Positions 9,424 through 64,000 of a stretch of DNA of 64,000 nucleotides are shown here, one piece after another (within the stretch, counting starts at the first letter, position 1; the number at the start of each line of letters is the position of its first letter). The translations under genes were made by a program, and so were the position numbers. Under the pieces are notes generated by a model that made no database searches, was not told where the DNA came from, and worked only from the letters and a program-made list of their open reading frames with translations. The stretch spans positions 3,673 to 67,672 of the forward strand of contig JBCLES010000011.1 in assembly GCA_038913135.1 (NCBI GenBank), given 5' to 3'. Origin of the DNA: Anaerolineae bacterium. GTDB lineage: Bacteria; Chloroflexota; Anaerolineae; Epilineales; Epilineaceae.

Positions 9424-10023
9424 CGTTGGGCTCCTGAGTCCTGCAGCCATGGGCACACGTCACCACATCGCGGCGCGTGACGGCGCGATGGGACGAGCAC
9501 GCTTCGATTAATCGATCGATGTTGATGAACGGCGGGCCGAGCGATTTGATCACAATGTCTGTCGTTGATTCGCGTCCTGCCGGCCAAGGAATGAAATCAA
9601 GGTCAGGGAACCCATAAGGCGATCGATTCCAGTCGCCGGGTTCGCACACCGTTTCGAGATCTCGCGCTCCGGAGCATGGACGACCGCCGCTGATGTCACC
9701 GATGCCTGCTCTGGAACCGCTGCTTCTCAGTCCACGCCGTTGCCGATGCGAATGCGATCTGCGGCGATTCTACGTCCGCCCGAAACCCACCGCAAGAGGG
9801 GATCGAAGACCACGGTTTCTTCGAACGCATAGAACCTCTGTTCGACGCCGCTGGTAGTAGTAGCACCAACGCGTAAACACAACATGCAGGTCAACTCGGA
9901 GGTGCAATCGACCAGCTGGACCCTTCGAAAACTTTAAGTAAACGCATTCGAGCTAGAACTCATACGGGCTATAGGGCGCATCTCGGCGACGGCCGAGAGC
10001 CAATCTCGAATTTGTTGCGAGCA

Positions 10024-10051
10024 TTGTCAGGCTTCGGCGACCGACTATAAT
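10024..10051 (+). promoter_or_regulatory. Sigma70-type promoter of the ABC operon
   Basis: TTGTCA-N16-TATAAT about 130 bp upstream of the ATG at 10182. Confidence 0.55.
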
Positions 10052-10181
10052 CCCCGCCTGTTCTGCCGCGCCGATCAACTCCATGCAGTTGGTCGGCCGA
10101 CGCTCGTCGGCTTCCCTAGCCGAGCGTCGTGCAGCACTGCGCGGCGACGAAGACGATACGATACGTTCTTAGGAGGAGCGA

Positions 10182-11306
10182 ATGGCGCGATCTGAAGCAC
10201 GCCAAAGCGGCGAGCCGATGATCGAGGTCGATCATCTCTCGCGCTACTACGGGCCGTCGCCGGCGCTCGAGGATATTTCGTTCACCGCGTATCGCGGCGA
10301 GATCCTCGGGTTCCTCGGGCCGAACGGCGCTGGCAAGACCACGACGATGCGCATCTTGACGGGCTACATGCCCCCGAGCGATGGCACAGCGCGCGTGGCG
10401 GGCCACGATGTCGTCTCCGAGTCGATGGAAGCGCGCAGGCACATCGGCTACCTTCCGGAGTCGACTCCGCTGTATCCCGAAATGACCATCTATCGCTATC
10501 TGGACTTCATGGGGCGTTTGCGCGACGTTCAGGATCGCGGGAAAGCGATCGAGCGGGTCATGAAGCAGGTCTCGATCAGCGACCGGGCCGATCAATTGAT
10601 CGGCCAACTCTCGAAGGGCCTTCGGCAACGAGTTGGGATTGCGCAAGCCCTGCTGCATGGGCCCGACGTAATCATCCTCGACGAGCCGACCATAGGCCTC
10701 GACCCGCGACAGATCCGCGAGGTCAGGCAGCTGATCTCCAATCTTCGGGGGGACCACACGGTCATTCTTTCGACACATATTCTCCCCGAGGCGCAGCAGG
10801 TTTGTGATCGGGTGTTGATCATCAATCGCGGACGGATCGTGGCGGAGGACACGCCGGATCGGCTCACGGCCCGGCTGTCGGGCGGAGAGCGCGTTCGAGT
10901 CGCCGTGGCTAACGGTGCGCCGGTCGAGGAGGTTAGGATGACGCTCGCCGGACTTGCCGGCGTCGGCGAAGTCGAGGCGACCGGCGGCGGCGGTTTCGTC
11001 GTGACCGCCAAGCAGGACGCCGTCATCCGGCCGGCTTTAGCGCGCATGATCGTCGAGAAGGGCTGGGAGCTATCGGAGCTGACGCCGATCGGCCTTTCGC
11101 TAGAGGAAGTCTTCCTCGAACTGACCGGCGATGCAAAGGCGGCGGCGGAACTTGCCGGCGTTGGAACGGAAGGGGAAACTATCGATACGGAAAGGGACAT
11201 TGAGGCCGGTGTACAGCCGGACGATGACCAGCCCGACGATAACCAGCCGGAAGATAACCAGTCCGATGATGTTGCGGCGGACGTTGAGGAGGCGGACAAT
11301 GCGTAA
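10182..11306 (+). CDS. ABC transporter ATP-binding protein (GldA-like) with acidic QPDD-repeat tail
   Basis: GPNGAGKTT, LSKGLRQRVG, IILDEPT; AGGAGG RBS. Confidence 0.93.
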   Translation: MARSEARQSGEPMIEVDHLSRYYGPSPALEDISFTAYRGEILGFLGPNGAGKTTTMRILTGYMPPSDGTARVAGHDVVSESMEARRHIGYLPESTPLYPEMTIYRYLDFMGRLRDVQDRGKAIERVMKQVSISDRADQLIGQLSKGLRQRVGIAQALLHGPDVIILDEPTIGLDPRQIREVRQLISNLRGDHTVILSTHILPEAQQVCDRVLIINRGRIVAEDTPDRLTARLSGGERVRVAVANGAPVEEVRMTLAGLAGVGEVEATGGGGFVVTAKQDAVIRPALARMIVEKGWELSELTPIGLSLEEVFLELTGDAKAAAELAGVGTEGETIDTERDIEAGVQPDDDQPDDNQPEDNQSDDVAADVEEADNA

Positions 11307-49478: not shown

Positions 49479-50682
49479 ATGAATACCGAGCCTTCGAATA
49501 CTGTCCAGCGCTTTATACCAAGGTTGATCGACTACATCCGACATTATCGGGTGATCGCAGTGCCGTTGATCGTGGTCCTGTTCATATGGTTGCTCTACTG
49601 GACGCTTGCTGAGAAGCGCGAGGATCCGTCGTATGTCGCGAATCAGATCATCGTGGCGGGGGACCCTGACGTCATCGATGAGGTCATCCAACGGGCATTG
49701 CCCGGAGCGATAAGGCTGAGCTCGATCGAGAGCGTGAAATCCTCCGATTGCGATTGCGATCTCGAGTTGGAGCCCATCGAGACGAGAGAGCCTCCGCTTG
49801 AAGATGCTGAATCAGCGACAACAACGCTTGAAGGAACGACTTCAACTCCCTTGCCTCCGGCGGTGGAGGAGTCAATTGACGATCCTTTTGAGCACCCGCT
49901 CAACTTCGCCATTCAGTTACTCGACGTTTCAAGCGTGGTATATGCCGAGGAATCGAGAGACGGAGCTAAGTCCGGTGGATCGACCTCGGTCGACAACACC
50001 GTGCGCGCGATCGGTGAAGTGTATGAGGCTGTCAACAGTATCAACGGGAAGCCAGGCGCTATACCTGCGGCTTTGGTCGCGGATCCGAACTACATCGTCA
50101 CGAGTTCTAAGAAGACCATGGATCCGAACGATGGTCCTGGCGGAATCGGTGCCCGCTTTCGTCGTAATACACAAGACTTCGAAGCTTCCTGCCCTATACG
50201 ATTCCGTCATCAGCGTCACCGGAACGCGGATCGACACTTCCACTAGGTCGTGCTTCGCGAACGCGGGTCAAGTCTCGGCGGCGGCAGGAGGAGACACCGC
50301 CTCTCCTTGTGCAATAGGTGTTGCCGCCGCTTGTCGTGATGCGAATGCCTCACGGACAGCGGAAGGTTGTGATAATGCGATCATCGCGCTCGTCAATCCA
50401 GCGTCCTTCATCGGCCTCCCCAACAGTGCTGAATTCTCTAGCGGATATGCTTTCTGGACCGGCACGTCGTTCGCGTCTCCTCTGGTTGCGGGTGGCATCG
50501 CCAGAGTCATGGAGAAGTATCCGGCAGCGGCGCGCACACCAGCCACCATCAGGCAGGTGGTCCATTGCGGGGCCATCGGCACGAGCAATCCCGGCCCTCT
50601 GCCTACGCCCGACATTAACACGCCGCTAGGGGCCGGCAGTATCGATTGGGCGGTTGCGCTCAGCACTCAATGCGCGCCCTGA
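49479..50682 (+). pseudogene. S8 subtilase remnant
   Basis: N-terminal TM and prodomain-like part, then another frame with GYAFWTGTSFASPLVAG; catalytic Asp/His motifs not seen. Confidence 0.65.
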
Positions 50683-50811
50683 TCGAGAGCAGGCAACAAG
50701 GGTCGCGCTAAACCGAATGATCCGGCAGACGTCGAAGCCAACCGCCTGATCGAACGGATCGAACGCATCGACCTCCCTCACGACGCCCCTTGTCGCCCAC
50801 GGCAAGGGGCG

Positions 50812-52308
50812 TCACACCACCCGCCCCGCCCCATCCCGCCGCGGATCCCCACCGGCCTCCGCCTTCGCCCCACCTTCCGCCCAACGCACCGCGTTCGCGC
50901 CGCCGAAGTAGCCGCCTCTTTCGCGCCAAGCTTGGACGCGCCAACCCATCGATCTCAGCGAGTCGGGCACTCCGAGATCGTAGCCGGGTTCCAGGTGAAG
51001 GACGCCGTCCTCGAAGTGGACCCGTTGGTGGCCTACCGCCCGGGCCACGTCGGAACCGTCGACGATTAGGCGCGCAATCTGCGATAGCGCGGTTCGTATG
51101 GGGGCGGAGCCGCCGCTGCCGACGGCGACGAGGTCGCCCTCCGCACGCATCATCAGCGTCGGCGACATCATCGTCCCCAACGGCGCGCCTGCTGGGCCCG
51201 CGTGAAATCCGTCCGGGAAGAGATCCGCTTCGCCCAACATGTTGTTGAGCATGAGGCCAGTTCCCGGCACGAGGTAGCCCGCCGTCTCGCCCGCCGACGC
51301 CGTGATCGAGACCGCCATCCCGTTGGCATCGACTACGGAGACATGGGTGGTCGATCCGCGGCCAGCGGGCTCGGCCTCGCCGTTGACGGCCCGCCGCTCA
51401 CGCACCGCGGCGAGCGCCTCGGGCAGCAGGCGGGCGACAACATCGTGGATTTCGCGCTGATCGAACGTCGACAAGTCGCCCGACCAGCCGCCCACCGCCC
51501 CATTCACCGCCGCGATCACCACTCCCCAGCGATGAGCGTCTTCCGCCGTGCCGGGTGCAGACGGCGGTTCATGCTCCGAAATCGCGCTCCAAAGGCCGAG
51601 CAAGCGGGCTAGCATGATGCCGCCTCGCGACGGCGGCGGTGGGACCAGGATCTTCCACCTAGAGAAGTCGACTTCAATTGGCGGCGCCTCGCGCACCTTC
51701 AGTTCGGCTAGGTCGCGCGCCGTGAGCAGGCCTCCGTTCGCCGCTTGGTCCGCGACGATCCGCTCGGCGAGATCGCCCGAATACATCGATCCGAAGCCTT
51801 CGTCCCGAAAAGTACCGAGTAGGTCTGCGAGCGGGCCTAGATCAACGGCGCCCGGATCGTTCATATACGCGCCCGCCCCTCCGAAAAGGGCAGCGCACTC
51901 CGGGGTGTCGGTCATGATCGGCTCGAGCGCGCGCGAGATCGCGATGTGGCCCGGCGGGAAGATCGCGCCTGCTCGTGCTAGCGCTATCGCGGGCTCGATG
52001 ACGTCGGCGAGAGGCATCGACCCCCATCGACGGTGCATGTGAGCTAGGAGCGCGACCAATCCCGGCACTGCGACGCTGGCCCTGCCGACATGGAAGCGGA
52101 TCTGCGTTTCGCTGTATTGAAGGACTTTTTCCCGAAAGTCGAGTTCACCTGCCTTCAATCGCTCGGCCGGTGTGCGCTCGGCCCCCAAGCCCGGCATCGC
52201 GGCGATGGAGGCATCGATCGCATTCCCTCCGCCGGCAAGGATCTCCGCAGCGACGTCGGCCGTCGCCGGCGCGCCGGCAGCGACGGCGCCCTTCAAGCGG
52301 CGCTGCAT
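50812..52308 (-). CDS. ggt: Gamma-glutamyltransferase family protein
   Basis: GGNAIDA, SVAVPG, STTHVSVVD, LNNMLGE, MMSPT, GSGGS; short N-terminal segment seems missing. Confidence 0.88.
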   Translation of the reverse strand: MQRRLKGAVAAGAPATADVAAEILAGGGNAIDASIAAMPGLGAERTPAERLKAGELDFREKVLQYSETQIRFHVGRASVAVPGLVALLAHMHRRWGSMPLADVIEPAIALARAGAIFPPGHIAISRALEPIMTDTPECAALFGGAGAYMNDPGAVDLGPLADLLGTFRDEGFGSMYSGDLAERIVADQAANGGLLTARDLAELKVREAPPIEVDFSRWKILVPPPPSRGGIMLARLLGLWSAISEHEPPSAPGTAEDAHRWGVVIAAVNGAVGGWSGDLSTFDQREIHDVVARLLPEALAAVRERRAVNGEAEPAGRGSTTHVSVVDANGMAVSITASAGETAGYLVPGTGLMLNNMLGEADLFPDGFHAGPAGAPLGTMMSPTLMMRAEGDLVAVGSGGSAPIRTALSQIARLIVDGSDVARAVGHQRVHFEDGVLHLEPGYDLGVPDSLRSMGWRVQAWRERGGYFGGANAVRWAEGGAKAEAGGDPRRDGAGRVV

Positions 52309-52454
52309 GTTGTCGCGTATCTAAGCACGTCGAGTCTCGGTTGATTTGGGGCGGGTATGATCCCGACGCGTGTTACGACGAATCCGGCGAAACGACCCGA
52401 CGGATCGTACTGGAGGGTTCGATTCGACCAGCCTCACGAATGGTAGCCCCGCCG
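52127..52454. repeat. Left direct repeat of the DGR block (ggt 5' end + upstream)
   Basis: 52321-52454 matches 63867-64000 at 128/134; 52127-52196 and 52274-52292 match 63756-63837. Confidence 0.9.
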
Positions 52455-52509
52455 GCACCCACTGTGGCAGGGAAACAGCGAGATTCGGGACGAAGGGTCA
52501 TTTCACGCG

Positions 52510-53874
52510 TCATGGGGGTCGCTCGTCCCTCGACCCAAAGTGTTCTCCGCCACTTCGTTCGAGGTGCTTCTGCACCGATCGATAGAAGCTCGGCCGCCTG
52601 AAGTACATTCCATGAGCCGTGCCGAGGTCTGTCCCGGTAGGGTATCGAATGTCGATGGCGTCCTCGAACACCGGTGCCGCCATAAAGCTGAACACATCGG
52701 CCGGATCGTAGACATTAAGCCACGCGCCCACTCGGCCAGAGAGGCCGGCGACGCGCTGAGGGTGGCGGATGTCGGTGTTGCTGACCATGAACAGCTTCAT
52801 CTCTTCGAACTGTGCCACCTGCCCGCCGACCGATATCCACGCATCAACCGTTAGATCGGGCGCGAAGTACGTCAAGATGTCGTAGAAGATATTGCCGCCC
52901 ATCGAATGGGTCATGACGATCAACGGCTCGTCCGGCGCTGCTGCGCGGGCGTCCTCGATGGACGCGCGGAGGCGGAGCACGATCGGACCGGGGTCTTCAA
53001 AGGTTCCGCGCTGGTTCAGGTAGGCGAAAACATCTCCAAGGAAGTGGGCGGCGTATTCGTGGACGCGTCGGCGGCGGGCTTGGAGCAAGGTCATGCTCAG
53101 CGTACGGCCAAGACGCGAATGGGAGCGATCCAACAACTCCTTGACCTGCCTGTCGAGCGACGCGATCCAGCGCGGGGTGTACGAACTCTCGAAGCCGCCG
53201 TCGATGGCGACAGGGGCTTCGAGGTCAGGCGCGGCGGTCGAGGCGCGAAGGAGCGCCTCGTAGCGACTTCGAATCTGGTCACCGATCACTTCCTGCGCCT
53301 GCTTGTCATTCGTCAGGCGCTGGATCGAGGAGCGCAGATTCGAATCGTGCGCCGCCTCGTCGGCCGCCAGCAGCAAGAGCGCTTCACGCTCTCCGCGCCG
53401 GCGGGCGCGCGCGCTTTCTGTGGCCGTGGCATCTTCGGGGAGGCCGAGCGCCAGTTCCTCCATGATGATCGGTGAGAGCAGGAGATCGACGGCTTCGGGC
53501 AGGTTGGTTTGTGCCAGGCGAAGAAAGACCGGCGATGACCGGTCATCGTTGGCGACGGACTCGGTGCCGCCGGAGTCGAGGGCCAGGCCAGCGAGTGCCA
53601 GCCGCTCATCGGTGATGGGGAGCACGAACTCCTCGCTTGCGACACCGCCTTCGGCGCGTTCGTAGAAGCGCACGTCGGGCAGGGACCGCAGGCCCCACGC
53701 AAAGTCGACCCCGAGATCGCCCCAATATGGATCGTGGATGGCTGCTTTAGCCAGTCGGCCGCCGGAAAGTGGCTCGAGCAGGCAAGCTCGCAGGAGCCGC
53801 TCGCGGACGTGACGATCCGACTCGTAGCGCGGACCTCTCCGGATGTTGACGCCGTGGATGAAGACGAGCGGCAT
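52510..53874 (-). CDS. Alpha/beta-hydrolase-fold protein
   Basis: LVFIHGV, YWGDLG, FLGDVFAY, IVMTHSMGG, WLNVYDPAD, AHGMY (Ser-Asp-His pattern). Confidence 0.75.
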   Translation of the reverse strand: MPLVFIHGVNIRRGPRYESDRHVRERLLRACLLEPLSGGRLAKAAIHDPYWGDLGVDFAWGLRSLPDVRFYERAEGGVASEEFVLPITDERLALAGLALDSGGTESVANDDRSSPVFLRLAQTNLPEAVDLLLSPIIMEELALGLPEDATATESARARRRGEREALLLLAADEAAHDSNLRSSIQRLTNDKQAQEVIGDQIRSRYEALLRASTAAPDLEAPVAIDGGFESSYTPRWIASLDRQVKELLDRSHSRLGRTLSMTLLQARRRRVHEYAAHFLGDVFAYLNQRGTFEDPGPIVLRLRASIEDARAAAPDEPLIVMTHSMGGNIFYDILTYFAPDLTVDAWISVGGQVAQFEEMKLFMVSNTDIRHPQRVAGLSGRVGAWLNVYDPADVFSFMAAPVFEDAIDIRYPTGTDLGTAHGMYFRRPSFYRSVQKHLERSGGEHFGSRDERPP

Positions 53875-54075
53875 GATCGCGTTGCCTCCGCATAATGTCT
53901 TAAGGCCGGACGAGCACGGCGATGATACCTCACCGCCAGGACCAACATGCCCACCTCCGGCCTATCGATGGCCCTACCTGTGGGGTGCATGGTATCTTCC
54001 CGGTGGCCGGAGCGCTCCCCGCGCGCGCATGATGCTAGCCGGGCCGCACGCCAAGCCGATGCGGAGGTGTCCTGA

Positions 54076-57000
54076 GTGCCTGATCACTTCCTGAACGAAC
54101 GTGAACTGCGATGGGAGCGAAGCGAGACCCGCGCTCTGCACGACCTGCTGAAGTCGATGTACCCGCGCCAAGACGATGCGATCGAAGCGCTCCAGGCTCT
54201 CGGTTTCGCGTACCCGGAGGCAGACTTCGAATTTCATCCCAAGATGGATCGAAGCTGGCGCAAGATCATGACGGACTTGCACAGGCGGGCCAGGCTGATC
54301 CGCCTTATCGAGATCGCGTCGGCGGATGAGCGGCTGAGCCGATTCCACTACGAACTGCGGGTTCTTAGAGGTGGTGTCGCAGCCGAGCCGACTCCGGACC
54401 CAAGCTCCTCCGCGGACCTGGATTGGCGGGGCGCGCCAATTACGTCTGCCGGTGGTTTCGAGCGACTCTTGCGCGACGGCCGGTCGCTCGTTCCGACGAG
54501 CTTCTTGTCCGAGGGAGCGCGCGTGGCCGCGGCCGTCGCATGGATCGAGGCTAAGTTTCCGAACGATCACAGCTGCAAGGGATCGGGCTTCCTGGTGGGG
54601 CCGGATCTCCTGCTGACCAACCACCACGTGCTCCACGACGCGACGGCCGGCCAGGTGGCCGCTGGCGAAGTCGAGGCCCGCTTCGGCTATGAGGAAAGCG
54701 GTTATGGTTTGATGCCGCCTTGGCGTACCGTGGCGGGTCTTGTCGACACCATCCGGGGTGATGCAACGCACGATTGGGCGGTGATCCGCCTCGCGGAAGC
54801 GCCGGGCAATGAGTACCGGTGGATACCGCTGGCGCAGGATTCATTGATCGCTGTGGACGAGCCGGTGTACATCATCCAGCATCCGGGCGGGCGTCGGAAG
54901 ATGGTGTCGATCGATCCGGCCGGCGTGGTGCGCTTCTTAGACGACGACCGGATCCAGTACCTGACCGAGACCGAGGAAGGCTCCTCCGGCGCTCCGGTGT
55001 GCAATCGCTCATGGCAGGTTGTCGCCTTGCACCATCGCTGGGAGGATGTGAGTCACGGTGACGGTCAGGAAAAACGAAACCAAGGTATACCTATCGCCCG
55101 TGTCATCGAAGGACTTACGGCAGCGGGGATTGCGATCGGCGGAAACGCGGCTGATGCCGCGCCCGGTCTGCCTCCCAGCGCGGTGTCGCTGGAGAGCATC
55201 GCACGGCGCAAGGCGGCCGTGGAACCCAGCACCGAGCTGCCGAGCGCCCGCGAACCGATAGGTCATGGGCACGAAACCGAACAACTGCGGCGCTGTCTTG
55301 CTGAAAATATCGAGGCCGGCCGAGGCGGCTTCGTGGCCCTGTACGGCGGGCGCGGCTACGGGAAGTTCGCCTTGGCTCGGAGTGTCCTGGAGACATTGGC
55401 CGACGACGGCGCGACGGTGCTGGCCACGAGCTTCGGAAGCCCGCCGACGGTGGGAGAGTCGACGGCTTCAGTCGCGCTGCGCGAACGGTGGCCGCAGGCA
55501 TCGGATCGGGCGGGTTGGGCATGGCTCGATCTCGTGATGCAGGCTGAAGCCGCGATCGCTCAGAAAGGCCGCACGCCACCGTCGGAACATGATACCGACG
55601 GCGCCGCGCATCTGCGCGCCCTGCTGCGGGCTCTGGCCGCCGATGGCCCGGTGCTCCTGCTCCTGGACGAGTTGAGCAGGGCCGAGGGCCCGTCGTCGGA
55701 ATGGTGGCCGCGCTGCCTCCTTGACCTTGGAGAGCAGATGCGGAACGGCCTGCCCTGCAACGTGATCATGACATTACCGCCCCTTCCCTTCGACTGGGGG
55801 ACATGGATCGGCGAAATGCTTGAGCAGGTCGACGATCTGCTCCAACTGCGTGTAGACCTGGACCAGATCTCGGGTGAGGATGCCGAACGCTATCTCGCTC
55901 AGCGCCTCGACGGTGCCGTGGAAGGTATGGTGGCCGAGAACTTGTGTCGGTTGGCCGACGGTGTCCCAGCAGTGTTCGAGGAAATCGTCGATTGGAGTCT
56001 CGATGCCCGCGTCCCCGGTCCTGACGGCCGTCCTGTCGCCGCCCTCACCTGGGATGACCAGGAGATGATGTGGCGCGCAGCTCCGGGTACGGGGGATCTT
56101 GTTTTCGAGACGGCGCATGACAGTGTGCTGAAGGTGTTGGACGCCCTTGTTCCAGCAGAAGACGCCAGCGCCTGGGCGGCGGCGGCCGGGATGCTGAACC
56201 ACCGCGATCATCCGTCTCCCGCGGCACTCCGCCAAGAGGTGAAGTTCATCCTGGGCTGCGCTGCACTCGAAGGGCGGAGCTTCACAGTGGAGGTCGTCGC
56301 CGCGGTTCTGGGTCTCGATGCCGAACTGCTCATCGACGGGCTGGACGAGTATCTGGTTCGGAATGACGAGACCGGCCTCTTGGAGGACGATGGGTTCACG
56401 GAATTGTCGCCGGCGCTAGCGACCGCGCCGCTCCCCGTTCCGCCCAGCGGCTCTGGCGCGTCGCGCTACCTGCATCACTATCGTTTCCGCTGGGCATGGC
56501 AGTGGCGGACGTGCGCGAAGTACTTTCTCGACGACACGGGGAGGGCCCAATTGATCGGCCCTCTCACGAGTGCGATCGAGGGGCTGGTTCCGACCATGCA
56601 TCGCTCCGCGTTCGCGCCCGCGCTGCGTGGCCTGTTCCAGCTTGGAAGCGAACTCGAAGCGCGTGGCGCCATTCGAACCGACGTCGAGAACTATTGGCAT
56701 CTCCGGGCCGACGAGTACCGGAGCCTGGGCCGCCTCGGCGAACTCCAGTCACCTGCGCTTGCGACCCTCCAATGGCATGTCGAAGTGCTCGATCAGCGTG
56801 ACGATCGGCGTACGCCCGATCACGACCGGCTCCTTCTTCAACTACGCCTCACGTTGGCAGAGGCTATTTTGCATGCCGTCGCGGACGGTGAGCTGGACGA
56901 CGCGCGCCTCGCCGCCGCGGAGGCGGAGCGCGCAGCCACACTAGCGATTACCCTCGGAAGCAAGCAGAGCGAGGAACAGGCCCGGACCCTCCACCAAGCC

Positions 57001-58308
57001 GCCGCGATGGCCGATGCGCTGTTGCGCACGACGACGTCCGACGACGCCCGCGAGTCGCTGTCGAACCTGCTCGCCGCCGGTCTGGGCAAAGCCGCCGACG
57101 CGAACCAATTGGACCCGAGTGCCCTGGCCGCCGACTCCCGCCAACCACTGGCGCAAGCCATGGTAACCATCCTCGATCACCGCGAGATCGATCTGGATGC
57201 CCGCATCGCGGCCAGTCTGACCCTCGGCCGCATCGGCGACCCGCGCTTCGAGCGCCGCGACGGCCCTGAAGGCGCGTACATTTCCCCACCCCTCGTCGCC
57301 ATACCCGCGGGCAGCTATCCCATCGGCTCTTCGGCCGACCCGGACAGCCTCTGGTTCGATCCGAAGGGCTTTGCAGATGAACGTGAAGCCCACGAAGTCG
57401 AGCTTGATGCCTTCGGAATCGGGCGCTACCCAGTGACGAATGCCGAGTGGGCGTGCTTCATGGCGGCGGATGGCTACGTTGATGAGCGTTGGTGGACGAA
57501 TCCGGTGGCGCGTGCGTGGTTGGCGGGAGATCCGAAACAGCAAGAGCTCGGCCGCGAGGGGTGGCGAAATTGGTGGCGCTCGGCCCAAGAGCAGGTCAAT
57601 CTCGAAGCGTGGTTGCAGAGCGAAGCCGCGTCCAGGCAATGGTCAGCATACCAGCTGCGAGACCGCCGCGGGATCGCGCGGCTCGAAGCTCGCCGCTTGG
57701 AAGAAGTCGTGCATGGATGGTATCCCGATAGACCTCCACACGAACCATCCGAATGGCGAAATCCGAAGTTCAATAATCCCTCCCAGCCCGTGGTCGGCGT
57801 TTCATGGTTCGAGGCATTGGCGTACTCCAATTGGCTCTCGGCACAGACAGGGCTGGAGTTCCGTCTGCCATCGGAGGTCCAATGGGAGGCAGCAGCCCGG
57901 GGAACGGCCGGCCGGCGCTTTGCCTTCGGCGACGTCTTCGATCAAGCACTCGCCAATACGGCGGAGACGGAGCTCGAGCGGACAACGCCGGTAGGCGCGT
58001 ACTCCGGCGGCTCGACGCCGGAAGGAGTGCACGACTTGTGCGGCAATGTGTGGGAATGGACGCGATCGCTTTGGGGCACGAACGGCGAGCAGCCGGACTT
58101 CACGTACCGGTACGTCGCCGACGACGGTCGCGAGAAGGAAGAGGCGCCAGCGCAGCGCCTGCGGGTGTTGCGGGGCGGGTCTTGGATCGATACAGAGCTC
58201 GGCGCCCGCGCGGCGGTCCGCTACGGGAATTTCCCGACCGAACGGTTCACGAGCAGCGGGTTTCGGCTGGTTTGCGCGTCCCCCATCTCGCTGGCCACTG
58301 AGCGCTGA
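54076..58308 (+). CDS. DGR target 1: EAD-like + trypsin protease + P-loop NTPase + FGE-sulfatase/C-type-lectin fold
   Basis: GSGFLVGPDLLLTNHHV, DWAVIRL, TEEGSSGAP; GGRGYGKF and LLLLDE; YPVTNAEW, PVVGVSWFEA, RLPSEVQWE, GNVWEW, RVLRGGSW...GFRLV. Confidence 0.92.
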   Translation: MPDHFLNERELRWERSETRALHDLLKSMYPRQDDAIEALQALGFAYPEADFEFHPKMDRSWRKIMTDLHRRARLIRLIEIASADERLSRFHYELRVLRGGVAAEPTPDPSSSADLDWRGAPITSAGGFERLLRDGRSLVPTSFLSEGARVAAAVAWIEAKFPNDHSCKGSGFLVGPDLLLTNHHVLHDATAGQVAAGEVEARFGYEESGYGLMPPWRTVAGLVDTIRGDATHDWAVIRLAEAPGNEYRWIPLAQDSLIAVDEPVYIIQHPGGRRKMVSIDPAGVVRFLDDDRIQYLTETEEGSSGAPVCNRSWQVVALHHRWEDVSHGDGQEKRNQGIPIARVIEGLTAAGIAIGGNAADAAPGLPPSAVSLESIARRKAAVEPSTELPSAREPIGHGHETEQLRRCLAENIEAGRGGFVALYGGRGYGKFALARSVLETLADDGATVLATSFGSPPTVGESTASVALRERWPQASDRAGWAWLDLVMQAEAAIAQKGRTPPSEHDTDGAAHLRALLRALAADGPVLLLLDELSRAEGPSSEWWPRCLLDLGEQMRNGLPCNVIMTLPPLPFDWGTWIGEMLEQVDDLLQLRVDLDQISGEDAERYLAQRLDGAVEGMVAENLCRLADGVPAVFEEIVDWSLDARVPGPDGRPVAALTWDDQEMMWRAAPGTGDLVFETAHDSVLKVLDALVPAEDASAWAAAAGMLNHRDHPSPAALRQEVKFILGCAALEGRSFTVEVVAAVLGLDAELLIDGLDEYLVRNDETGLLEDDGFTELSPALATAPLPVPPSGSGASRYLHHYRFRWAWQWRTCAKYFLDDTGRAQLIGPLTSAIEGLVPTMHRSAFAPALRGLFQLGSELEARGAIRTDVENYWHLRADEYRSLGRLGELQSPALATLQWHVEVLDQRDDRRTPDHDRLLLQLRLTLAEAILHAVADGELDDARLAAAEAERAATLAITLGSKQSEEQARTLHQAAAMADALLRTTTSDDARESLSNLLAAGLGKAADANQLDPSALAADSRQPLAQAMVTILDHREIDLDARIAASLTLGRIGDPRFERRDGPEGAYISPPLVAIPAGSYPIGSSADPDSLWFDPKGFADEREAHEVELDAFGIGRYPVTNAEWACFMAADGYVDERWWTNPVARAWLAGDPKQQELGREGWRNWWRSAQEQVNLEAWLQSEAASRQWSAYQLRDRRGIARLEARRLEEVVHGWYPDRPPHEPSEWRNPKFNNPSQPVVGVSWFEALAYSNWLSAQTGLEFRLPSEVQWEAAARGTAGRRFAFGDVFDQALANTAETELERTTPVGAYSGGSTPEGVHDLCGNVWEWTRSLWGTNGEQPDFTYRYVADDGREKEEAPAQRLRVLRGGSWIDTELGARAAVRYGNFPTERFTSSGFRLVCASPISLATER
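58157..58289 (+). repeat. DGR variable region VR1
   Basis: Inverted copy of 60093-60225; mismatches concentrated at A-involving sites in codon positions 1-2. Confidence 0.88.
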
Positions 58309-58323
58309 TGCCGCGTAGCGGCA
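58309..58323 (+). other. Post-VR hairpin (candidate DGR target-recognition stem-loop)
   Basis: TGCCGC-GTA-GCGGCA immediately after the target 1 stop codon. Confidence 0.6.
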
Positions 58324-58391
58324 GGCAGTTCACGCCGTTGGCATCTCGACCAAGGTTGGTGACCACGATCCACGCTGATCGGTGCGGGTCG

Positions 58392-59501
58392 TCAGCTCTC
58401 GTCCGGACTTTCGACCCCGGCGATAGACTTCGGCTCGGCCCTTGGTCGACCGGACAATGGCCGGCCAAGAATGTGATTGCGCAGGCCCCACGTGTCGGCG
58501 TAGCTGACGTGGGCGAGCCAGCCCTGGACGCTCGCGTCGAACTCGGCGAAGGTGATCTGGCCGGCGCAGTACTCGCTCCAGTGAAGGCGGAGGCGGCGGT
58601 CGAAGTTCACGATCTTGCGCGCCTTAATCCGTCGGTGGGACGGGTAGACGATGAAGCCTAGCCACGGGGTGCCGGTGGTGACCGGCGCGACCTGGGCGTT
58701 ATGGTCGTGGATGGTCAGACGCAGGTCCGCAAGGCGCTGGACGATGTCCGACTTCCATCGCCAGAGTTTGCGCTTGTCGTCGGAGAAAAGCGCAAGGTCG
58801 TCGACGTAGCGCACGTAGGCGGAGCATCGGAGATGGCGGACGATGAAGTGATCCAGCGGATCGAGATAGCAATTGGACCAGAACTGGCTCGTCAAGTTGC
58901 CGATGGGAAGGCCGCGCGGACGCTCGGCGGCCATCAGGTCGTCGCCCGGGAACCAGACCATCTCGTATTCGTCGGCCAGGACGCCACGGCCGCTCTCGAG
59001 GATGCGTCCGACCAAGTCCATGATGTCGTCTTCCGGTATGGCGCGCGCCAGGAGATCCGTCAGGATGGCGTGATCGATCGAAGGGAAGTGGCGCACGACG
59101 TCCATGCGCAGGGCGAAGCGATAGCGCCGCGCGTGGTCCTGCAACCGGTCCACGGCGCGGTGGGTGCCTTTGCCGCGGCGGTTGGCGTAGCTGTGCGGCA
59201 GGAAGCGGCGTTCGAAGCGGGGTTCGATGATGTTGCAGAGCGCGTGGTGCACCACCCGGTCACGGAAGGGTGCGGCGCTGATCTTGCGGACCTTGGGCTC
59301 GTGGATGTGAAAGTGCACGTAGTCGCCCGGCGTGTACACGTGCGTATACAACTCGGATTCGAGCTCGATGAGTCGATCGGTGAGCCGGTGCTCGAAAGTG
59401 GCCGCCGCGCCCATGCCTCGCTTTCCACGCGCCGCCTTGCGCCAGGCCTCGAGCAGGTTGTCCCAGCCGACAAGACGCGCGTAGGCTTCACTGTGAGACA
59501 A
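58392..59501 (-). CDS. DGR-type reverse transcriptase
   Basis: [65 protein letters not shown]; no maturase or endonuclease domain. Confidence 0.95.
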
Positions 59502-59512
59502 GGAGTCGCCCC

Positions 59513-59854
59513 TTGGCCGACGACATGGTCATCTTCAGCCGTACATTCGACATGCTCGACTGGCTGCTGCCCAAAGGCGAGAGCTTTCCAAGGACCTATC
59601 GGAACACGGTCACGCAGCGGATGATGGATTCCGCGCTCGACTTCCACGAGGAGCTGAACGCGGCACGCAACCAGGGTGGGAGCACGCGGCAGCGGCATCT
59701 CCGCAGCGCAAGCGCCCACCTCGATTCGTTGCGACTATACCTGCGCTTGGCGCAGCGTTGGGGCTGGATCACGCCGGGCCAGCACCGACACGCCAGCGGC
59801 ATGCTCGCCGAAATCGGGCGCCTGCTCGGCGGCTGGCAACGCGCCAAAGAGTGA
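59513..59854 (+). CDS. avd: DGR accessory variability determinant Avd (four-helix bundle)
   Basis: 113 aa, basic: [35 protein letters not shown]; AAGGAG RBS. Confidence 0.92.
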
Positions 59855-60092
59855 GGCGCCTCGCGGCCCGTGGGCCAGGGAGGCGCCTCGCTTGAATATG
59901 TGCCCGGCGGTGGCCCCGGAAGGCCGACCGCGCGGACGGGACGAGCCTGCGCCATCTCGATACCTTCGCCTCGGCCCGCGAACCGTGGTCGGCGGGCAAT
60001 GCCGGAAGCCTTACCCTTGCCTGCGTCCCAGGACGCTCCAGGGGGCCGGCTCGCAACGGGCGGCATTTCACCCGCGCCTTCGAAGGGGGACA
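59853..60092 (-). ncRNA. Structured region resembling the TR-to-RT spacer of DGR RNA
   Basis: GC-rich stems (GCCCGC...GCGGGC; two GAGGCGCCTC palindromes at 59853-59862 and 59880-59889) between a VR-like repeat and the RT; role inferred from position and recalled similarity. Confidence 0.45.
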
Positions 60093-63000
60093 GAGGTGTG
60101 GGACGCGCAAACCAGCCGAAACCCGTCGTACGTGAACCGTACGGCAGGTAAACCCCCGCTGCGGACCGCCGCGCGGGCGCCGAGCCCTGAAGAGATCCAA
60201 GACCCGCCCCGCAACACCCGCAGGCAGCCGGCGTCAGCGCCGACCTCCTCGCGCCCGTCGGCGGAATCGTACGGGTAAGCGAAGTCGGGTGCCTGGGAAT
60301 CTCGCCCCCAAAGGCTTAGCGTCCACTCCCAGACGTTGCCTGTCATGTCGACCAGGCCCTCGGGCGTCCGGCCGGCAGGAAAGACGTCGATCGGCGTGGT
60401 GCCTCGAATGTGCGTCTTATACGTGTTGCAGGCAGCCGCATCAAAGTCCTTCCCGTATGCGAAGTCTCGACCCTTCAGACCGCGACAAGCGGCTTCCCAC
60501 TCGACTTCGGTCGGCAGACGATAGTTCCGGCCGATCTTGGCCGAAAGCCAGGCGCAGTACGCTCGCGCTTCGTACCACGACACGCCGACCACGGGTTGGG
60601 CCGGACTGTTGTAGCGCGGATTGGTCCACAAATGCGGTATGGAGTATTGCTCGGATGGATACCAGTCATCGAGCTGGGCTTCGAGAGCTTCCTCGTCGAG
60701 GCGGCGGAACCAATCGACCCAATCATAATGTGTCTCCGGCAGCCCGGCATTGGCCTCGCGCCACCTCCCGAATCCGTCATCATCCTTCGGGTAACGCGCC
60801 CAATCGTCTCGCTGCCACTGCTTAGCCGGCTCCACGATGGTCGGGTCGCCGAGCCGCCAGGCCTTCGCATCGTCCGTTTCCCACCAGCCCTCATCGTCGT
60901 AGCCGCCGTCTTCCACAAAGCAGCGATACTCGGCGTTCGTGATGGGGAAGCGGCCGATTTCGAAGGGGGCGATGCCCACCGTTCCGACCGGGCGCTTGTC
61001 CGCCCAACCATCTTCGGTACCGATCGGGTACCGTCCGCTAGGGATCGGGACCATCGGCGTGACAAGGTGGCTGAGTCGGCCGTCCGCGGCGCGCACGGTC
61101 TCAAAGCGGTCGTCACCGAGCTCGCCCAGGGCGTTGGCGGCGTCGATGCGGGCCCGTAGATCCGCGTGTTCGTCGTCGCAGCGTTCTCTGAGCAGGCGTC
61201 GGAGTTCGGACGCCGTCGCCTCTGGAACTTCAGCGCCAGGCTCAACGGTACAGCGCGCGGCAAGCGGCAGGTTGGTTTCGGCAAGCGCCATGACGAAGGC
61301 GTCTGCATTGCTCGTCATGGCCGCGGCGAGGCGCATCGTGACTTCCCAGCCGGTCTGTTCGAGGCCTGGCAGCGGGTCTCCGTGCGCCAGACCCGCCATC
61401 GTGTGCGCCAGCGTCTCCGCGACCTTGTCCTTGTGCCATTCGCTGCACGCCAGCTGCGGCTCGGGCTCCGCGGCCAAGACGCGCCCGGCGAAGAACTCCT
61501 GCATAAGTTGATGGTAGAAGCGCAGCTGCTCTTGCCCGCTCGTGGAGTCGAAGGATAAGTCGAGCACGCCGATCGAGTACCCCGCCCGCAGGATTTGCTC
61601 GCGCTGCGCGTCGTCGAAGCCTTCACCCAACAGAGCCGGCGCAGCGTCATAATCGACGACAATCTGCTGGCCGGCGCCGATGGTCGTCTGCATTCCATGG
61701 GCCAATCGCGCCAGCGCACCGACCAAAGGCCCGCGAGTCGGAAGTGTGTGGCCCCGCATCTGCGCCAAGCGTGCTCGGTCCAATGGGTGGAGGAGGTCAT
61801 TGGAGAAGAGTTACTGGTTGTCCCTCATGATCTCGCGCAGCATCGATTGCCGCACGAAGCCTGCGAACAACGCCGCGCGCCCCACTGGAACTTCGCCATC
61901 GTCGCCGACCTGGTCGACCAAAAGCCTGAGGTAGTACGGCGTCCGATAGATGTCGATCTGCCCACTTTCGCGAATAGCATTCCAGAGCTTGGAAGCCAAC
62001 TCAGGTCGGTAAACGTCGAGGAAGTTCCGGATCTGTTCGTCGACCAGGCGCTTGACCAGTACGTGCGGTACGCGCAGCGCATCCGATGACAGGAACGTAC
62101 TGTAATCGAGGCTCCGGCAAGAGATGATGACGCGGATAAGTGGGTGATCGCGATACAGTGTATGCAGGTCGTCGCGCCAGGCCTTGACGCGATCCTCGTA
62201 GCTCGGCCGCGCGCCACCGTAGGGTATCTCGTTGAGCGCATCGAGCAGCAGGATCATGGGTTGGTCGTCCAACAGCGTCTCGAGCGGCGGCATCTTTGTA
62301 TGAGCAGCCTTCCAACTTTGGGCCAGCCAGTCCTTTGGCTTGACTGCCGCATCCCGATGCTCCGCCAGTGACAGATAGAACGGCAGAAGAGCGGCCGCGC
62401 CGCCTTCTACAGGGCCTGCCGCCGCGGCGTCCGGATCGGCGTCAGCCCAGCCTAGAGCAAGACACGCCAGTTCGATCTCGATGCGGCGCAAGAGCGTTGT
62501 CTTGCCGGCGCCGGGTTCGCCCAGGAGCACGAAGACGGGATTTTGCGCTCCCGCCGCGCGTACGACTTGGCGCAGATCGTTATAGTCGCGCTCCTGTTCG
62601 CTCCAGCGCATCTGGGCGCTCTCGCCCTTGTCGACAAACAGTCCCAGGCGCGTGAAGCGGCGCAAGTCCTCGCCACGACCGAGGAGATGCGGCTCCCGCC
62701 AGTTAGCGATCCGCCGCAGTCGATACTGTTCCGCGGTGCCTGGGTCGCTCGTGCGGAGGGCTTGCGATTCGTCATCGGACAGCTCGATCATCGGACCATC
62801 CGATCGTACGCGGATCAGGAGCGCTTCTAGTTCGTCGGGGCCGAGGAGCGCGTCGATTGTGCCGCGCGGTGGGCGCTTGCGTATCGCAGACAGATCGGCG
62901 TGGTATGCCGTGACCGCCGGGTCGTTCAGCACGTGCGTGACCAGATCGTTCATCCGGCCGCCGCGGCTCAAGAGGTTGATCATGTGCCGCCAGACCTCGC

Positions 63001-63232
63001 GCGCGGCGCCATCCCAATTGATCTCATATTCGCGAACGCCGATCTCGCTGGTGATCGCTTGGATCTCACGAACGTTGGGATAGGCACTGGCCAGCAGCCC
63101 ATGCAGCTCCAAGGCTGCCGGATTCGCCCAATCGAGCGGCGCCTCATCGAGGAAAGTTGAAGCGCCGGCCGGTGTCGGACGTACGCCAGTGCCTTTGCCG
63201 CTGCTGTATCGAGTGTCGCTGCGATCCGCCAT
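60068..63232 (-). pseudogene. DGR target 2: EAD-like + NACHT NTPase + FGE/C-type-lectin fold, split by one in-frame TAA
   Basis: ORFs 61811-63232 and 60068-61783 share a frame (..RDNQ*LFSND..); GEPGAGKTT, LLLDALNE, ISCR, FYHQLMQEFFA, GNVWEW, RVLRGGSW. Confidence 0.88.
60093..60225 (-). repeat. DGR variable region VR2
   Basis: 110/126 identical to VR1 over the core; encodes RVLRGGSWISSGLGARAAVRSGGLPAVRFTYDGFRLV. Confidence 0.88.
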
Positions 63233-63346
63233 CGGGCACCTCGTCGATCCAAGAAAGCGGTGCCCATCTTGGCACGGGTAGGTAGCCGACGCAATGTCTC
63301 GTCAGGGTTCGGAAATCGCGCCGGTCGACTTCAGTGTTGCGGAGTC

Positions 63347-63530
63347 CTAAGCCTGCACGACAGTCACTTCCCGCCCCGCCGGCGTTGTCGTATCACCCGC
63401 GCCCGTGCGCGCCTCGATCGGCGGCTGGCCGCTGCGGCGATCGAAGATCACAAGCCAGCCGGTCGGCTAGCCCAGCCGGCCCAGGTAGGCGTCCAGCTGC
63501 TCGAGCCCTTCGCCAAGGGGTCCGGCCGGC
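63347..63530 (-). pseudogene. C-terminal remnant of an AAA-ATPase/PD-(D/E)XK-type protein
   Basis: EGLEQLDAYLGRLG*PTGWLVIFDRRSG...TPAGREVTVVQA*. Confidence 0.6.
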
Positions 63531-63755
63531 CAGCGGCGCTGGCGGCTGCGTCGTGAACGCGGTGGCGGGGGCGCCGAGGCACGTGACGGAGCGGAGACGG
63601 GGCTGATGCGCGGGTGCAGGCGGCCGCGAGGCGGCGCGTTGGGGGGCGAACGGGGTGTGCGGGAGGCTGGCGCGAGGCGCGGTGGAGCGGCGTGGGGCCG
63701 CCGGAGGTGGTTGAAGGGCGGGCGGCGGGGTGCGATTGAAATTACTATTCCACTG

Positions 63756-64000
63756 TTTTCCGAAAGTCGAGTTCACCTGCCGTCAATCGCTCGGTCGGTG
63801 TGCACTTCGCCCCCAAGCCCGGCAGCGACGGCGCCCTCCGTTGGACAGGTTGTTACCGGACGAGCCCTAAGCACGTCGAGTCTCGGTTGATCAGGGGCGG
63901 GCATGATCCCGACGCGTGTTACGACGAATCCGGCGAAACGACCCGACGGATCGTATTGGAGGGTTCGATTCGACTAGCCTCACGAATGGTAGCCCCGTCG
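63756..64000. repeat. Right direct repeat of the DGR block (may extend past the window)
   Basis: Diverged copy of 52127-52454 with an 83-bp deletion between two CCGGCA hexamers. Confidence 0.9.

Follow-up and report, generated by a model that had tools for sequence, protein, structure and literature searches.

Two convergent genes that end in almost the same sequence, with a reverse transcriptase (RT) gene between them, raise the question of whether their locus is a diversity-generating retroelement (DGR) and, if so, where its template repeat (TR) lies. The DNA analysed, here called the window, is a stretch of 64,000 nucleotides on contig JBCLES010000011.1 of an Anaerolineae metagenome-assembled genome (MAG). 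A preliminary description of its letters had proposed that one DGR diversified both genes as receptors. The features to which we refer, including the two target genes and their variable repeats (VRs), are these:

52510-53874, minus strand: alpha/beta-hydrolase-like protein, 454 aa (Pfam Hydrolase_4 weak, E 7e-4, under the cut-off)
54076-58308, plus strand: target 1, 1410 aa, intact ORF; EAD1-like N-terminus, trypsin-like peptidase, AAA_16/STAND NTPase and C-terminal FGE-sulfatase domain
58157-58282, plus strand: VR1 (copy A), at the 3' end of target 1; the repeat homology reaches 58289
58309-58323, plus strand: predicted hairpin 3' of VR1 (stem 6 bp, loop GTA)
58392-59501, minus strand: DGR reverse transcriptase, 369 aa, intact (Pfam RVT_1, E 2e-15)
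59513-59854, plus strand: accessory protein Avd, 113 aa (Pfam bAvd, 67.2 bits against a cut-off of 40)
59855-60092, minus strand: spacer of the DGR RNA, in relatives a structured non-coding segment directly 3' of the TR
60093-60225, minus strand: copy B, at the 3' end of target 2; VR-like body, joined to the TR-type spacer
60068-61783, minus strand: distal part of target 2, a 571-aa ORF with a helical region and an FGE-sulfatase domain (Pfam E 1e-46)
61811-61813, minus strand: in-frame TAA dividing target 2 at codon 474
61811-63232, minus strand: proximal part of target 2, 473 aa, with an EAD1 adaptor and a NACHT NTPase

In a normal DGR, RT-Avd binds an RNA composed of the TR and a structured spacer and reverse-transcribes it, inserting random bases wherever the template has an adenine. 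Targets that carry a VR-type flank and hairpin then have their 3'-terminal VR replaced by this cDNA, so that the ligand-binding face of the FGE/C-type-lectin domain is recoded. By analogy, this cycle presumably also applied to the present locus.

A repeat search revealed a single inverted pair, 58157-58289 and 60093-60225, of 133 nt and 86% complementary. Compared position by position, copies A and B differ at 18 of the 133 nt, and 16 of these mismatches lie in the first 126 nt (58157-58282 versus 60225-60100). Fourteen of the 16 variable sites have an adenine in one copy, and by codon position 1/2/3 they are distributed 7/7/2, with 14 at positions 1-2; our recount gave the same figures as the preliminary description. 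The adenine is held by copy A at 10 sites, by copy B at four and by neither at two (both G/T), and thus neither copy is the template of the other. Only five adenines are common to both. Considered as the TR of copy B, copy A has the mismatches at its adenines in 10/16 cases, whereas this share reaches 70% or more in 145 of 162 related repeat pairs collected with no A-bias filter; copy B, considered as the TR of copy A, has them in only 4/16. Both assignments were rejected.

We then compared the repeat with the coding sequence upstream of it in a protein-guided codon alignment. The 42 VR codons contain 17 mismatches in 126 nt (87% identity), of which 14 involve an A and 15 lie at codon positions 1-2, whereas in the upstream control an A is involved in 202 of the 451 mismatches in 999 aligned nt (55% identity), and 260 lie at positions 1-2. 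Both the A excess (Fisher P=0.0025) and the codon-position excess (Fisher P=0.0115) distinguish the VR from its upstream sequence, and the fall from 87% to 55% at the boundary agrees with the earlier statement that the genes diverge just upstream of the repeat. These A-centred differences fit two VRs written from one adenine-rich template.

The proteins of the cassette are those of a DGR. The 369-aa ORF holds both motifs that had been noted in it, IGNLTSQ and YVDD, which are of the [LIV]GxxxSQ and YxDD types. Its closest solved structure is 8ub7_A (E 5.7e-45), labelled just 'Reverse transcriptase' in the structure table and which we take to be the BPP-1 bRT complex; the best group II intron RT reaches 2e-15, which leaves the 8ub7_A match 30 orders of magnitude ahead of any group II intron or retron RT. 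The protein is 33.7% identical to BPP-1 brt with 96% of its length covered (E 6e-37), and it scores far under the cut-offs of the NCBIfam group II, retron and Drt models. Homology searches thus uphold its assignment to the DGR type and not to group II introns or retrons. The Avd that the preliminary description had recognised clears its Pfam cut-off and falls narrowly under that of NCBIfam DivGenRetAVD (78.6 bits, cut-off 80). It adjoins the RT gene, and the two are divergently transcribed, with start codons 11 bp apart.

A syntenic DGR locus belongs to a relative, an uncultured Anaerolineales MAG (G001, locus L018/L106). Gene order and orientation are alike over about 11 kb: an EAD1-NACHT-FGE target, the spacer, avd on the opposite strand, RT, a trypsin-STAND-FGE target and a hydrolase-like gene. 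Identities to the window are 70% for the RT, 74% for Avd and 84% for the spacer (nt). Unlike the window, G001 carries a separate TR (L018 9051-9184), 186 bp downstream of VR1, VR-type flanks on both VRs, and an EAD1-NACHT-FGE target that is one unbroken 1051-aa ORF. The adenines of its TR account for 17/19 mismatches with VR1 and 16/19 with VR2.

G001 also tells the two flanks of the repeat apart. Over 239 nt, the window spacer has 84% identity with the segment that follows the TR in G001, compared with 67% over just 55 nt for the flank of G001 VR1. It aligns through the helices of a consensus fold drawn from 22 loci (the window and 21 related ones), which has 36 pairs, 26 of them with compensatory changes; a search of 50000-64000 against Rfam at E <= 0.1 returned no matches, and the spacer is in no Rfam family. 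The 3' flank of VR1 is of the VR type: across 31 nt it is 87% identical to the flank of each of the two VRs in G001, and the identical hairpin sequence occurs downstream of both of these. We therefore consider the segment at 58309-58323 a likely target-recognition hairpin. Its support is conservation and not thermodynamics, because its folding energy is no better than that of shuffles (z -0.45). Neither the VR-type flank nor the hairpin was found downstream of copy B, where the flank is of the TR type.

Two genes with FGE/C-type-lectin domains do face the cassette, as had been described: the FGE-sulfatase matches have E values of 7e-46 in target 1 and 1e-46 in target 2, and both genes point inward. 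Target 1 also matches Trypsin_2 (E 3e-22) and AAA_16 (E 2e-10), and is 44.6% identical to its G001 ortholog over 1429 aligned residues. Its N-terminus is assigned as EAD1-like indirectly, because that of the G001 ortholog matches tC residues 24-154, the EAD1 region (E 2e-9). Target 2 consists of two ORFs in one frame with a single stop between them. The proximal ORF exceeds the Pfam cut-offs for EAD1 (31.8 bits, cut-off 24.2) and NACHT (31.9 bits, cut-off 26.7); the distal one is 58% identical to the distal portion of the single G001 ORF, and its final eight codons and stop codon fall in spacer sequence. At the position of the TAA, G001 has a Leu, and the frame is likewise unbroken in another relative, G005 (1059 aa). 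The TAA could be a minority variant. Judged by their domains, both targets presumably act as sensor-effector proteins in a system that counters invaders or brings about cell death. The NCBIfam antiphage model EruA gave a match of only 39.5 bits against a cut-off of 1000.

With an intact RT, an adjoining Avd, a structured spacer and a VR that varies at codon positions 1-2 at the 3' end of an FGE/C-type-lectin-fold gene, it is very probable, to say the least, that the cassette is a real DGR with past adenine mutagenesis. Related loci behave in the same way. Relatives with 57-70% identical RTs sit in canonical DGRs, the nearest in Anaerolineales MAGs, and a scan of metagenome and genome contigs for RTs of the same species found nothing above 71% identity. 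In 162 repeat pairs from 104 related loci, taken with no A-bias filter, 2643 of 3141 mismatches (84%) fall at adenines of the spacer-adjoining copy, which is the enrichment at template adenines expected by the preliminary description. We use this figure instead of an initial 93.6%, which was circular because its pairs had been pre-selected for at least 70% A. The self-BLAST length filter was 400 nt, and the window's own inverted pair (508-nt alignment) fell outside it.

The same survey defines a fixed architecture for the clade: the order is target 2-VR, TR, spacer, avd (opposite strand), RT and VR-target 1, with the TR-spacer antisense to avd and avd divergent from RT. This divergent order is present in 154/169 related loci, a set that includes duplicates (at least L018/L106, L019/L170, L020/L145 and L044/L116 are the same places). 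An inversion between the inverted repeats had been considered as the source of the avd/RT order, and was rejected because divergence is the rule in the clade. Both convergent VRs occur in 34/68 related loci with room on both sides, a set chosen by the A-bias filter. Of 149 loci scored, 100 are canonical, 26 have no TR (mostly on short contigs), 19 have too little upstream sequence, three are fused as described below, the window among them, and one (L144) is ambiguous.

The window departs from this architecture in one respect: a non-coding TR with adenines that explain the TR-VR differences was found neither in the locus nor in the 3.45-Mb MAG. The repeat search gave no third copy in 53500-63500, and none above 70% identity in the MAG, which comprises 190 contigs, is 76.9% complete and has a smallest contig of 2027 bp. 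Queries with the VR copies and with the G001 VR1-to-TR segment gave no orphan TR/VR2-tail contig among these contigs of at least 2027 bp. The TRs of the MAG's other DGR loci (contigs C56, C65, C169 and C141) were considered as trans templates and rejected, being 61-66% identical to the VRs. Retrohoming from a shared template, as first proposed, thus retains the A-centred pattern that fits two VRs and lacks the template itself.

What occupies the place of the TR is copy B, which runs directly into the TR-type spacer. Its body is VR-like up to index 98 and its flank is TR-type from index 126, so the switch from VR to TR lies within a 27-nt stretch that is identical in all copies. The spacing is in agreement with this. 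In G001, 704 nt separate the start of the VR from the stop of avd, and VR and TR recur with a period of 319 nt; removal of one such unit predicts 385 nt, and the window has 371 nt. On this reading of the assembled sequence, one repeat unit of about 320 bp is missing here relative to G001. Nor is copy B an ordinary VR: its body is VR-like, but it is fused to the 3' spacer of a TR and is without VR-type flank and hairpin. Likewise, the diversification of both receptors by one DGR is well supported as a past event, and a currently working two-target DGR is unsupported.

We hypothesize that both 126-nt copies are VRs that would have been written from one lost adenine-rich TR which, where the copies differ, would have had adenines in five AAY-type codons and at seven further single positions. 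VR2 and the TR would have recombined by unequal crossover within the 27 nt common to their 3' ends, which would have removed the VR2 tail, a gap of roughly 190 bp and the TR, and left VR2 fused to the spacer. The element would then have been disabled recently, with RT, Avd, spacer and target 1 intact, with no adenine-rich template, and with both VRs frozen. The deletion would have to be recent because the RT, Avd and spacer show no decay. As a whole, this explanation is slightly favoured; the deletion being real and not an assembly error is, taken by itself, somewhat favoured. As assembled, without a template copy, the locus looks either recently disabled or mis-assembled, and it is an ordinary member of a known DGR group, probably one that was disabled recently.

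The main competitor, which we hold as a tentative possibility of some weight, is that the DGR is intact and canonical (VR2-TR-spacer-avd-RT-VR1, as in G001) and that the assembly lost the 320 bp by merging direct repeats about 320 bp apart, aided by the heterogeneity of an actively diversified VR2. DGR repeats are trouble spots for short-read assembly. The copy B-spacer junction is read from the assembly alone, which counts against a real deletion, and the join lies inside the 27-nt stretch common to all copies, where a graph assembler could change path. Moreover, the integrity of the RT, Avd and spacer is equally well explained by an intact, mis-assembled element, and target 1 is intact as well. 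Short contigs of the MAG break in DGR elements (C169 starts in a spacer and C141 holds a target end), so the assembler struggled at such loci; as contigs below 2 kb are missing from this fragmented MAG, an orphan TR piece would go unseen and a real TR fragment could have been discarded.

Several observations argue for a real deletion instead. A collapse would require a word of at least 29 nt spanning VR- and TR-flank-specific bases, and most final k values presumably exceed this length. The same assembly kept VR and TR separate on C65, with a period of 325 nt, and on C56, where it is about 700 nt. Target 2 carries an independent lesion, the in-frame TAA, and other DGRs of the MAG have decayed: C65 retains a TR and a VR with an RT cut to residues 170-346 and carrying a TAG, and no avd, while C169 has avd without RT. 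Finally, there is a natural precedent in G041, a highly contiguous assembly (contigs >1.7 Mb) that may, as a guess from its contiguity, derive from long reads. In this genome a target ORF of 1077 aa, itself intact, has a hybrid copy at its 3' end; the spacer comes next, and a separate TR is lacking. Of its 13 body mismatches, three of the first four (indices 21, 25 and 31) are off the adenines of the hybrid copy, and from index 36 on 9/9 are at them. The fused layout is present at three evaluable loci, the window, G041 and L049; the latter two, however, are only 2/129 of the other evaluable related loci, and L049 is a 2.8-kb short contig. We found no description of natural VR×TR fusion deletions in the literature, the supplements of which may hold cases, and reconstituted BPP-1 systems are stated to show TR-VR recombination only rarely.

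Should the fusion be real, copy B might serve as the template of an element that still works. The DGR RNA would then be supplied by the 3' end of the target 2 transcript, its cDNA would home into VR1, and the sequence of receptor 2, with about eight mutable adenines, would be copied into receptor 1. In favour of this, copy B stands in the place of a TR, immediately upstream of a spacer that is intact, as are RT and Avd; VR1 retains both flank and hairpin as the only copy that has them, and the corresponding slot in G041 is filled by a hybrid copy belonging to an intact ORF. However, copy B has a non-A base at 12/16 differences, so no rewriting of VR1 from copy B has followed the fusion, and the G041 pattern may be wholly pre-fusion history. 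In addition, the segment upstream of the TR, which in BPP-1 pairs with the spacer and is required (bioRxiv 10.1101/2023.10.23.563531), was lost here. We consider continued function of this kind quite improbable. A broader proposal, that VR×TR crossover is a recurrent natural fate of DGRs which puts into the template slot either the VR that a target has evolved or a VR/TR hybrid, and has made the present DGR 'self-templated', appears improbable too. If true, RT-Avd would write the selected specificity of receptor 2 (copy B plus spacer) into receptor 1 with a much reduced adenine set, and a successful sensor would be locked in and shared rather than randomised.

It is hardly credible that the gene ends were homogenised by gene conversion and then shaped by positive selection, with RT and Avd as bystanders, since conversion alone could give the abrupt step from 55% to 87% identity but selection predicts neither an A in 14/16 differences (with its excess over the upstream sequence) nor the explanatory power of the G001 TR adenines, and a TR-type spacer abutting copy B is equally unpredicted.

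We next compared the locus with known systems. Its domain architecture matches the published lineage that diversifies the FGE/C-type-lectin tips of STAND NTPases, the clade 5D cellular DGRs of multicellular bacteria, for example Thiohalocapsa PB-PSB1 DGR 3 and DGR 6 (Doré et al. 2024, PMC10907252). As described there, these have two targets, each with one C-terminal CLec/FGE domain bearing the VR and a central STAND NTPase (NACHT/nSTAND), some with N-terminal peptidase effectors or EAD adaptors; here, target 1 combines AAA_16 with FGE and target 2 NACHT with FGE. Clade 5D hosts include filamentous Chloroflexi, Accumulibacter and Nitrosomonas (PMC10907252), taxa that also hold relatives of the window RT with 58-70% identity, and it is through this host overlap that the RT is tentatively linked to the clade. 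Unlike the clade 5D systems, the present locus is without a separate TR and has one stop-interrupted target, although the supplements of Doré et al. may list TR-less loci. The targets also resemble the EAD/STAND NTP-dependent conflict systems (Kaur et al. 2020, PMC7159879), as well as bacterial NACHT/Avs defence proteins. Target 2 joins EAD1 to NACHT and target 1 joins Trypsin_2 to AAA_16, giving a putative EAD1 adaptor on both, a trypsin-like effector and, as in those systems, a hypervariable FGS/FGE sensor linked to a DGR; a defence role is putative here.

With the prototype, the BPP-1 DGR (mtd-avd-TR-brt), the locus shares a homologous RT and Avd, adenine-specific codon 1-2 differences in a C-type-lectin-fold VR at a gene's 3' end and, following the TR and the VR respectively, a structured spacer and a hairpin. 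In contrast, the BPP-1 element belongs to a phage, has a tail fibre as its single target and carries avd-TR-brt in one direction, whereas the present element is chromosomal, has avd divergent from RT and its TR-spacer antisense to avd, and faces two convergent intracellular STAND targets with the TR missing.

DGR-diversified STAND/NLR-like sensors have been proposed to provide anticipatory immunity in multicellular bacteria. The window adds an Anaerolineales example in which a trypsin-armed target and an EAD1-NACHT target share one cassette. It also illustrates a route to cassette death or to mis-assembly, as one VR×TR crossover removes the template and leaves all protein genes unharmed. DGR callers that require a TR would miss such a locus, and RT-only callers would overcall it. 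A real and recurrent fusion would bear on the persistence of DGR-written receptors after the loss of their writer. For the RT clade as a whole, the survey defines a conserved, covarying spacer RNA.

The hydrolase-like gene, finally, is divergent from target 1, and its G001 ortholog (51% identity, 441 aa) adjoins the target 1 ortholog in the same manner. This neighbour is a possible further component of the system.

The element of the window is a diversity-generating retroelement (DGR) of a known lineage. Its coding features are as follows:

54076-58308, + strand: target 1, a protein of 1410 aa with Trypsin_2, AAA_16 and FGE-sulfatase domains
58392-59501, - strand: RT
59513-59854, + strand: Avd
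60068-61783, - strand: distal ORF of target 2, 571 aa, with an FGE-sulfatase domain
61811-63232, - strand: proximal ORF of target 2, 473 aa, EAD1-NACHT

The start codons of avd and RT point apart, with 11 bp between them (59502-59512), and the template repeat (TR)-spacer unit, the spacer being the RNA segment 3' of the TR, lies antisense to avd.

The best solved homolog of the RT was 8ub7_A (E 5.7e-45), whereas group II intron and retron RTs appeared only from 2e-15 on, and the NCBIfam models for group II, retron and Drt RTs all scored far under their cut-offs. This agrees with the preliminary description, which had read the RT as part of a DGR. The brt protein of Bordetella phage BPP-1 is 33.7% identical to the window RT across 96% of the protein. 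Matches to the RT were present in 25 of 41 related genomes, a count that includes the window genome itself, and the top match, at 70% identity, was in the uncultured Anaerolineales MAG G001. This MAG and Candidatus Epilinea brevis (G009) belong to the same family as the window genome. RT relatives at 58-69% identity were found in Accumulibacter, Nitrosomonas, Competibacteraceae, Chromatiaceae, Bryobacterales and other Chloroflexota. A known DGR lineage that matches this situation, with hosts including filamentous Chloroflexi, Accumulibacter and Nitrosomonas, is described in Doré et al. 2024 (PMC10907252). For conflict systems of this kind, Kaur et al. 2020 (PMC7159879) report trypsin effectors, EAD adaptors, and FGS domains linked to a DGR.

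At their 3' ends, the two FGE genes carry an inverted repeat of 133 nt (58157-58289, copy A or VR1, and 60093-60225, copy B; 86% complementary). Base-by-base comparison revealed 16 mismatches within the first 126 nt. At these variable sites copy A carries the adenine in 10/16 and copy B in 4/16, the remaining two being G/T, and 14 of the 16 fall at codon positions 1-2; only five adenines are common to both copies. In a codon alignment, the two targets are 87% identical in the variable repeat (VR) but 55% identical in the 999 nt upstream, where A is involved in 202 of the 451 mismatches and position 3 accounts for 191. Compared with this upstream region, the VR has an excess of mismatches with A (P=0.0025) and at codon positions 1-2 (P=0.0115), and therefore neither excess is background. 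Thus, the near-identity over 126 bp, the adenine at 14 of the 16 sites, their codon positions and the free upstream divergence, silent sites included, all stood as the preliminary description had given them. The homology of the window parts to working DGRs and the adenine signature are both direct observations.

We surveyed 169 loci, comprising the window, eight regions from a genome search and 160 from two collection scans, duplicate loci included. The avd gene was directly upstream of the RT gene on the opposite strand in 154/169 loci, and an adenine-biased TR lay upstream of the avd 3' end in 100 of the 149 scorable loci, separated from it by a spacer (median 235 nt in 91 loci). Across 162 repeat pairs, taken with no filter for A, 84% of mismatches (2643/3141) were at adenines of the spacer-adjacent copy. 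Two convergent VR-bearing targets surrounded the cassette in 34 of the 68 loci that had sufficient flanking sequence on either side (A-filtered set). As divergent avd and RT genes with an antisense TR-spacer are the rule in this clade, the promoters must sit inside neighbouring coding sequences. The spacer itself is a conserved structured RNA with strong covariation: a consensus fold from 22 sequences (window 59855-60092, - strand, and 21 related loci) contains 36 pairs, 26 of them with compensatory changes. At its end, the spacer has a hairpin that stands back-to-back with the stop codon of avd. As the spacer matched no Rfam family, it could be used to mark TR position and strand.

G001 carries a syntenic DGR (locus L018), arranged as follows:

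8732-8865: VR1, in the EAD1-NACHT-FGE target
186 bp: gap from VR1 to the TR
9051-9184: TR
between TR and avd: spacer
9436-9768, - strand: avd
9780-10877, + strand: RT
10985-11118, - strand: VR2 of the trypsin-STAND-FGE target

Hence, G001 has a separate TR between VR1 and the spacer, whereas in the window copy B is joined straight to a TR-type spacer. The 238 nt downstream of copy B match the spacer downstream of the G001 TR (84% over 239 nt) and do not match the G001 VR-downstream flank (67% over 55 nt), while the flank of copy A matches the G001 VR flanks (87% over 31 nt). A small hairpin with a GTA loop follows both G001 VRs and copy A (58309-58323) and is absent 3' of copy B. Copy B is VR-like through index 98 (position along the repeat) and has the TR flank from index 126; therefore, the switch lies within 27 nt that are the same in all copies. 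From VR start to avd stop, G001 measures 704 nt; removal of one period of 319 nt would leave 385 nt, and the corresponding distance in the window, from the start of copy B, is 371 nt. These lengths agree with a putative loss of exactly one repeat period.

Sensitive blastn with both copies as query found no third repeat copy in the whole MAG, the next matches being paralogs in other DGR loci (61-66% identical). Of the proposed DGR with a shared template, the DGR stands by its RT, Avd and spacer, while the template is missing from the assembly. The adenine split (10 versus 4, neither copy holding A at two sites) excludes either copy as template of the other.

We lean towards a real crossover deletion between VR2 and TR. 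An in-frame TAA in target 2 (61811-61813), where G001 has Leu in an uninterrupted ORF of 1051 aa and a further relative (G005) has a frame of 1059 aa, is a lesion independent of the fusion and counts in its favour, as do the decay of other DGR loci of the MAG (contigs C65 and C169) and the observation that this assembly kept the VR/TR pairs on C65 and C56 separate. Moreover, the highly contiguous assembly of a Sedimenticolaceae MAG (G041, contig C1) has the same layout as the window: an intact target ORF of 1077 aa (L186 5783-9016) terminates in a VR/TR hybrid copy (L159 3349-3473), directly followed by the spacer without a separate TR. Among the 13 mismatches in the repeat body of this hybrid, three of the first four (indices 21, 25 and 31) do not coincide with its own adenines, while all nine from index 36 onward do. 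On a short metagenome contig (L049, about 540-660) a target ORF likewise runs straight into a TR-type spacer with no separate TR, giving three fused against 100 canonical layouts among the 149 scored loci. That the assembly collapsed VR and TR in the window is possible but somewhat doubtful; it would fit the undamaged RT, Avd, spacer and target 1, and the MAG is fragmented (76.9% complete, smallest contigs not below 2027 bp), with several short contigs breaking within DGR elements. A still active element using copy B as template is very improbable, since copy B has a non-A base at 12/16 differences, so VR1 was not rewritten from it.

In a complete system, following established DGR biology (BPP-1; bioRxiv 10.1101/2023.10.23.563531), RT-Avd would bind the TR-spacer RNA, cDNA synthesis would be primed in the spacer, RT-Avd would misincorporate opposite template adenines, and the cDNA would replace VRs bearing the VR flank and hairpin. 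From their domains, the targets would be NLR-like sensors whose diversified FGE tip recognises a molecule of the invader. Recognition would be followed by oligomerisation of the STAND NTPase and action of the trypsin domain, in cis on target 1 and perhaps recruited via EAD1 for target 2. The writer as assembled has no template, so both target tips would be frozen. The divergent partner of target 1 (52510-53874, - strand) encodes a protein of 454 aa whose only match, a weak one, is to alpha/beta-hydrolases; G001 has an ortholog at the same position (51% identical), and the protein could act as another effector here.

The window DGR belongs to an already known kind of element, and its TR-less fused state is a small variant, possibly artefactual. 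Natural VR×TR fusion deletions were not described in the article texts searched; the practical interest of the fused state lies in DGR annotation and in the way DGRs decay.

Further DGR material is present in the same MAG. C56 (L024) carries a co-directional VR-avd-TR-RT element plus a second VR. C65 (L025) has a TR and a VR but lacks avd, and of its RT only residues 170-346 are left, with a TAG. C169 begins in a spacer and carries avd together with a TR-like copy, without RT, and on C141 the end of an FGE target precedes a spacer-like piece of 72 nt. Several of these elements are decayed or assembly-broken. On C64 (4100-4195), 96 nt are 74% identical to the spacer middle; none of the avd, RT and FGE queries used matched this contig.

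Finally, a non-coding direct repeat of 195 nt (95% identical; 52321-52515 and 63867-64000, extending to 64061 on the contig), with no Rfam match, surrounds the whole DGR island of ~11.3 kb. An 82-nt piece (89% identical; 52124-52205 and 63752-63833) represents codons 37-62 of the 50812-52308 gene (- strand). The right flank therefore contains a fragment of the 5' end of this gene with its upstream region, and the flanking repeat may be a trace of island insertion or duplication.
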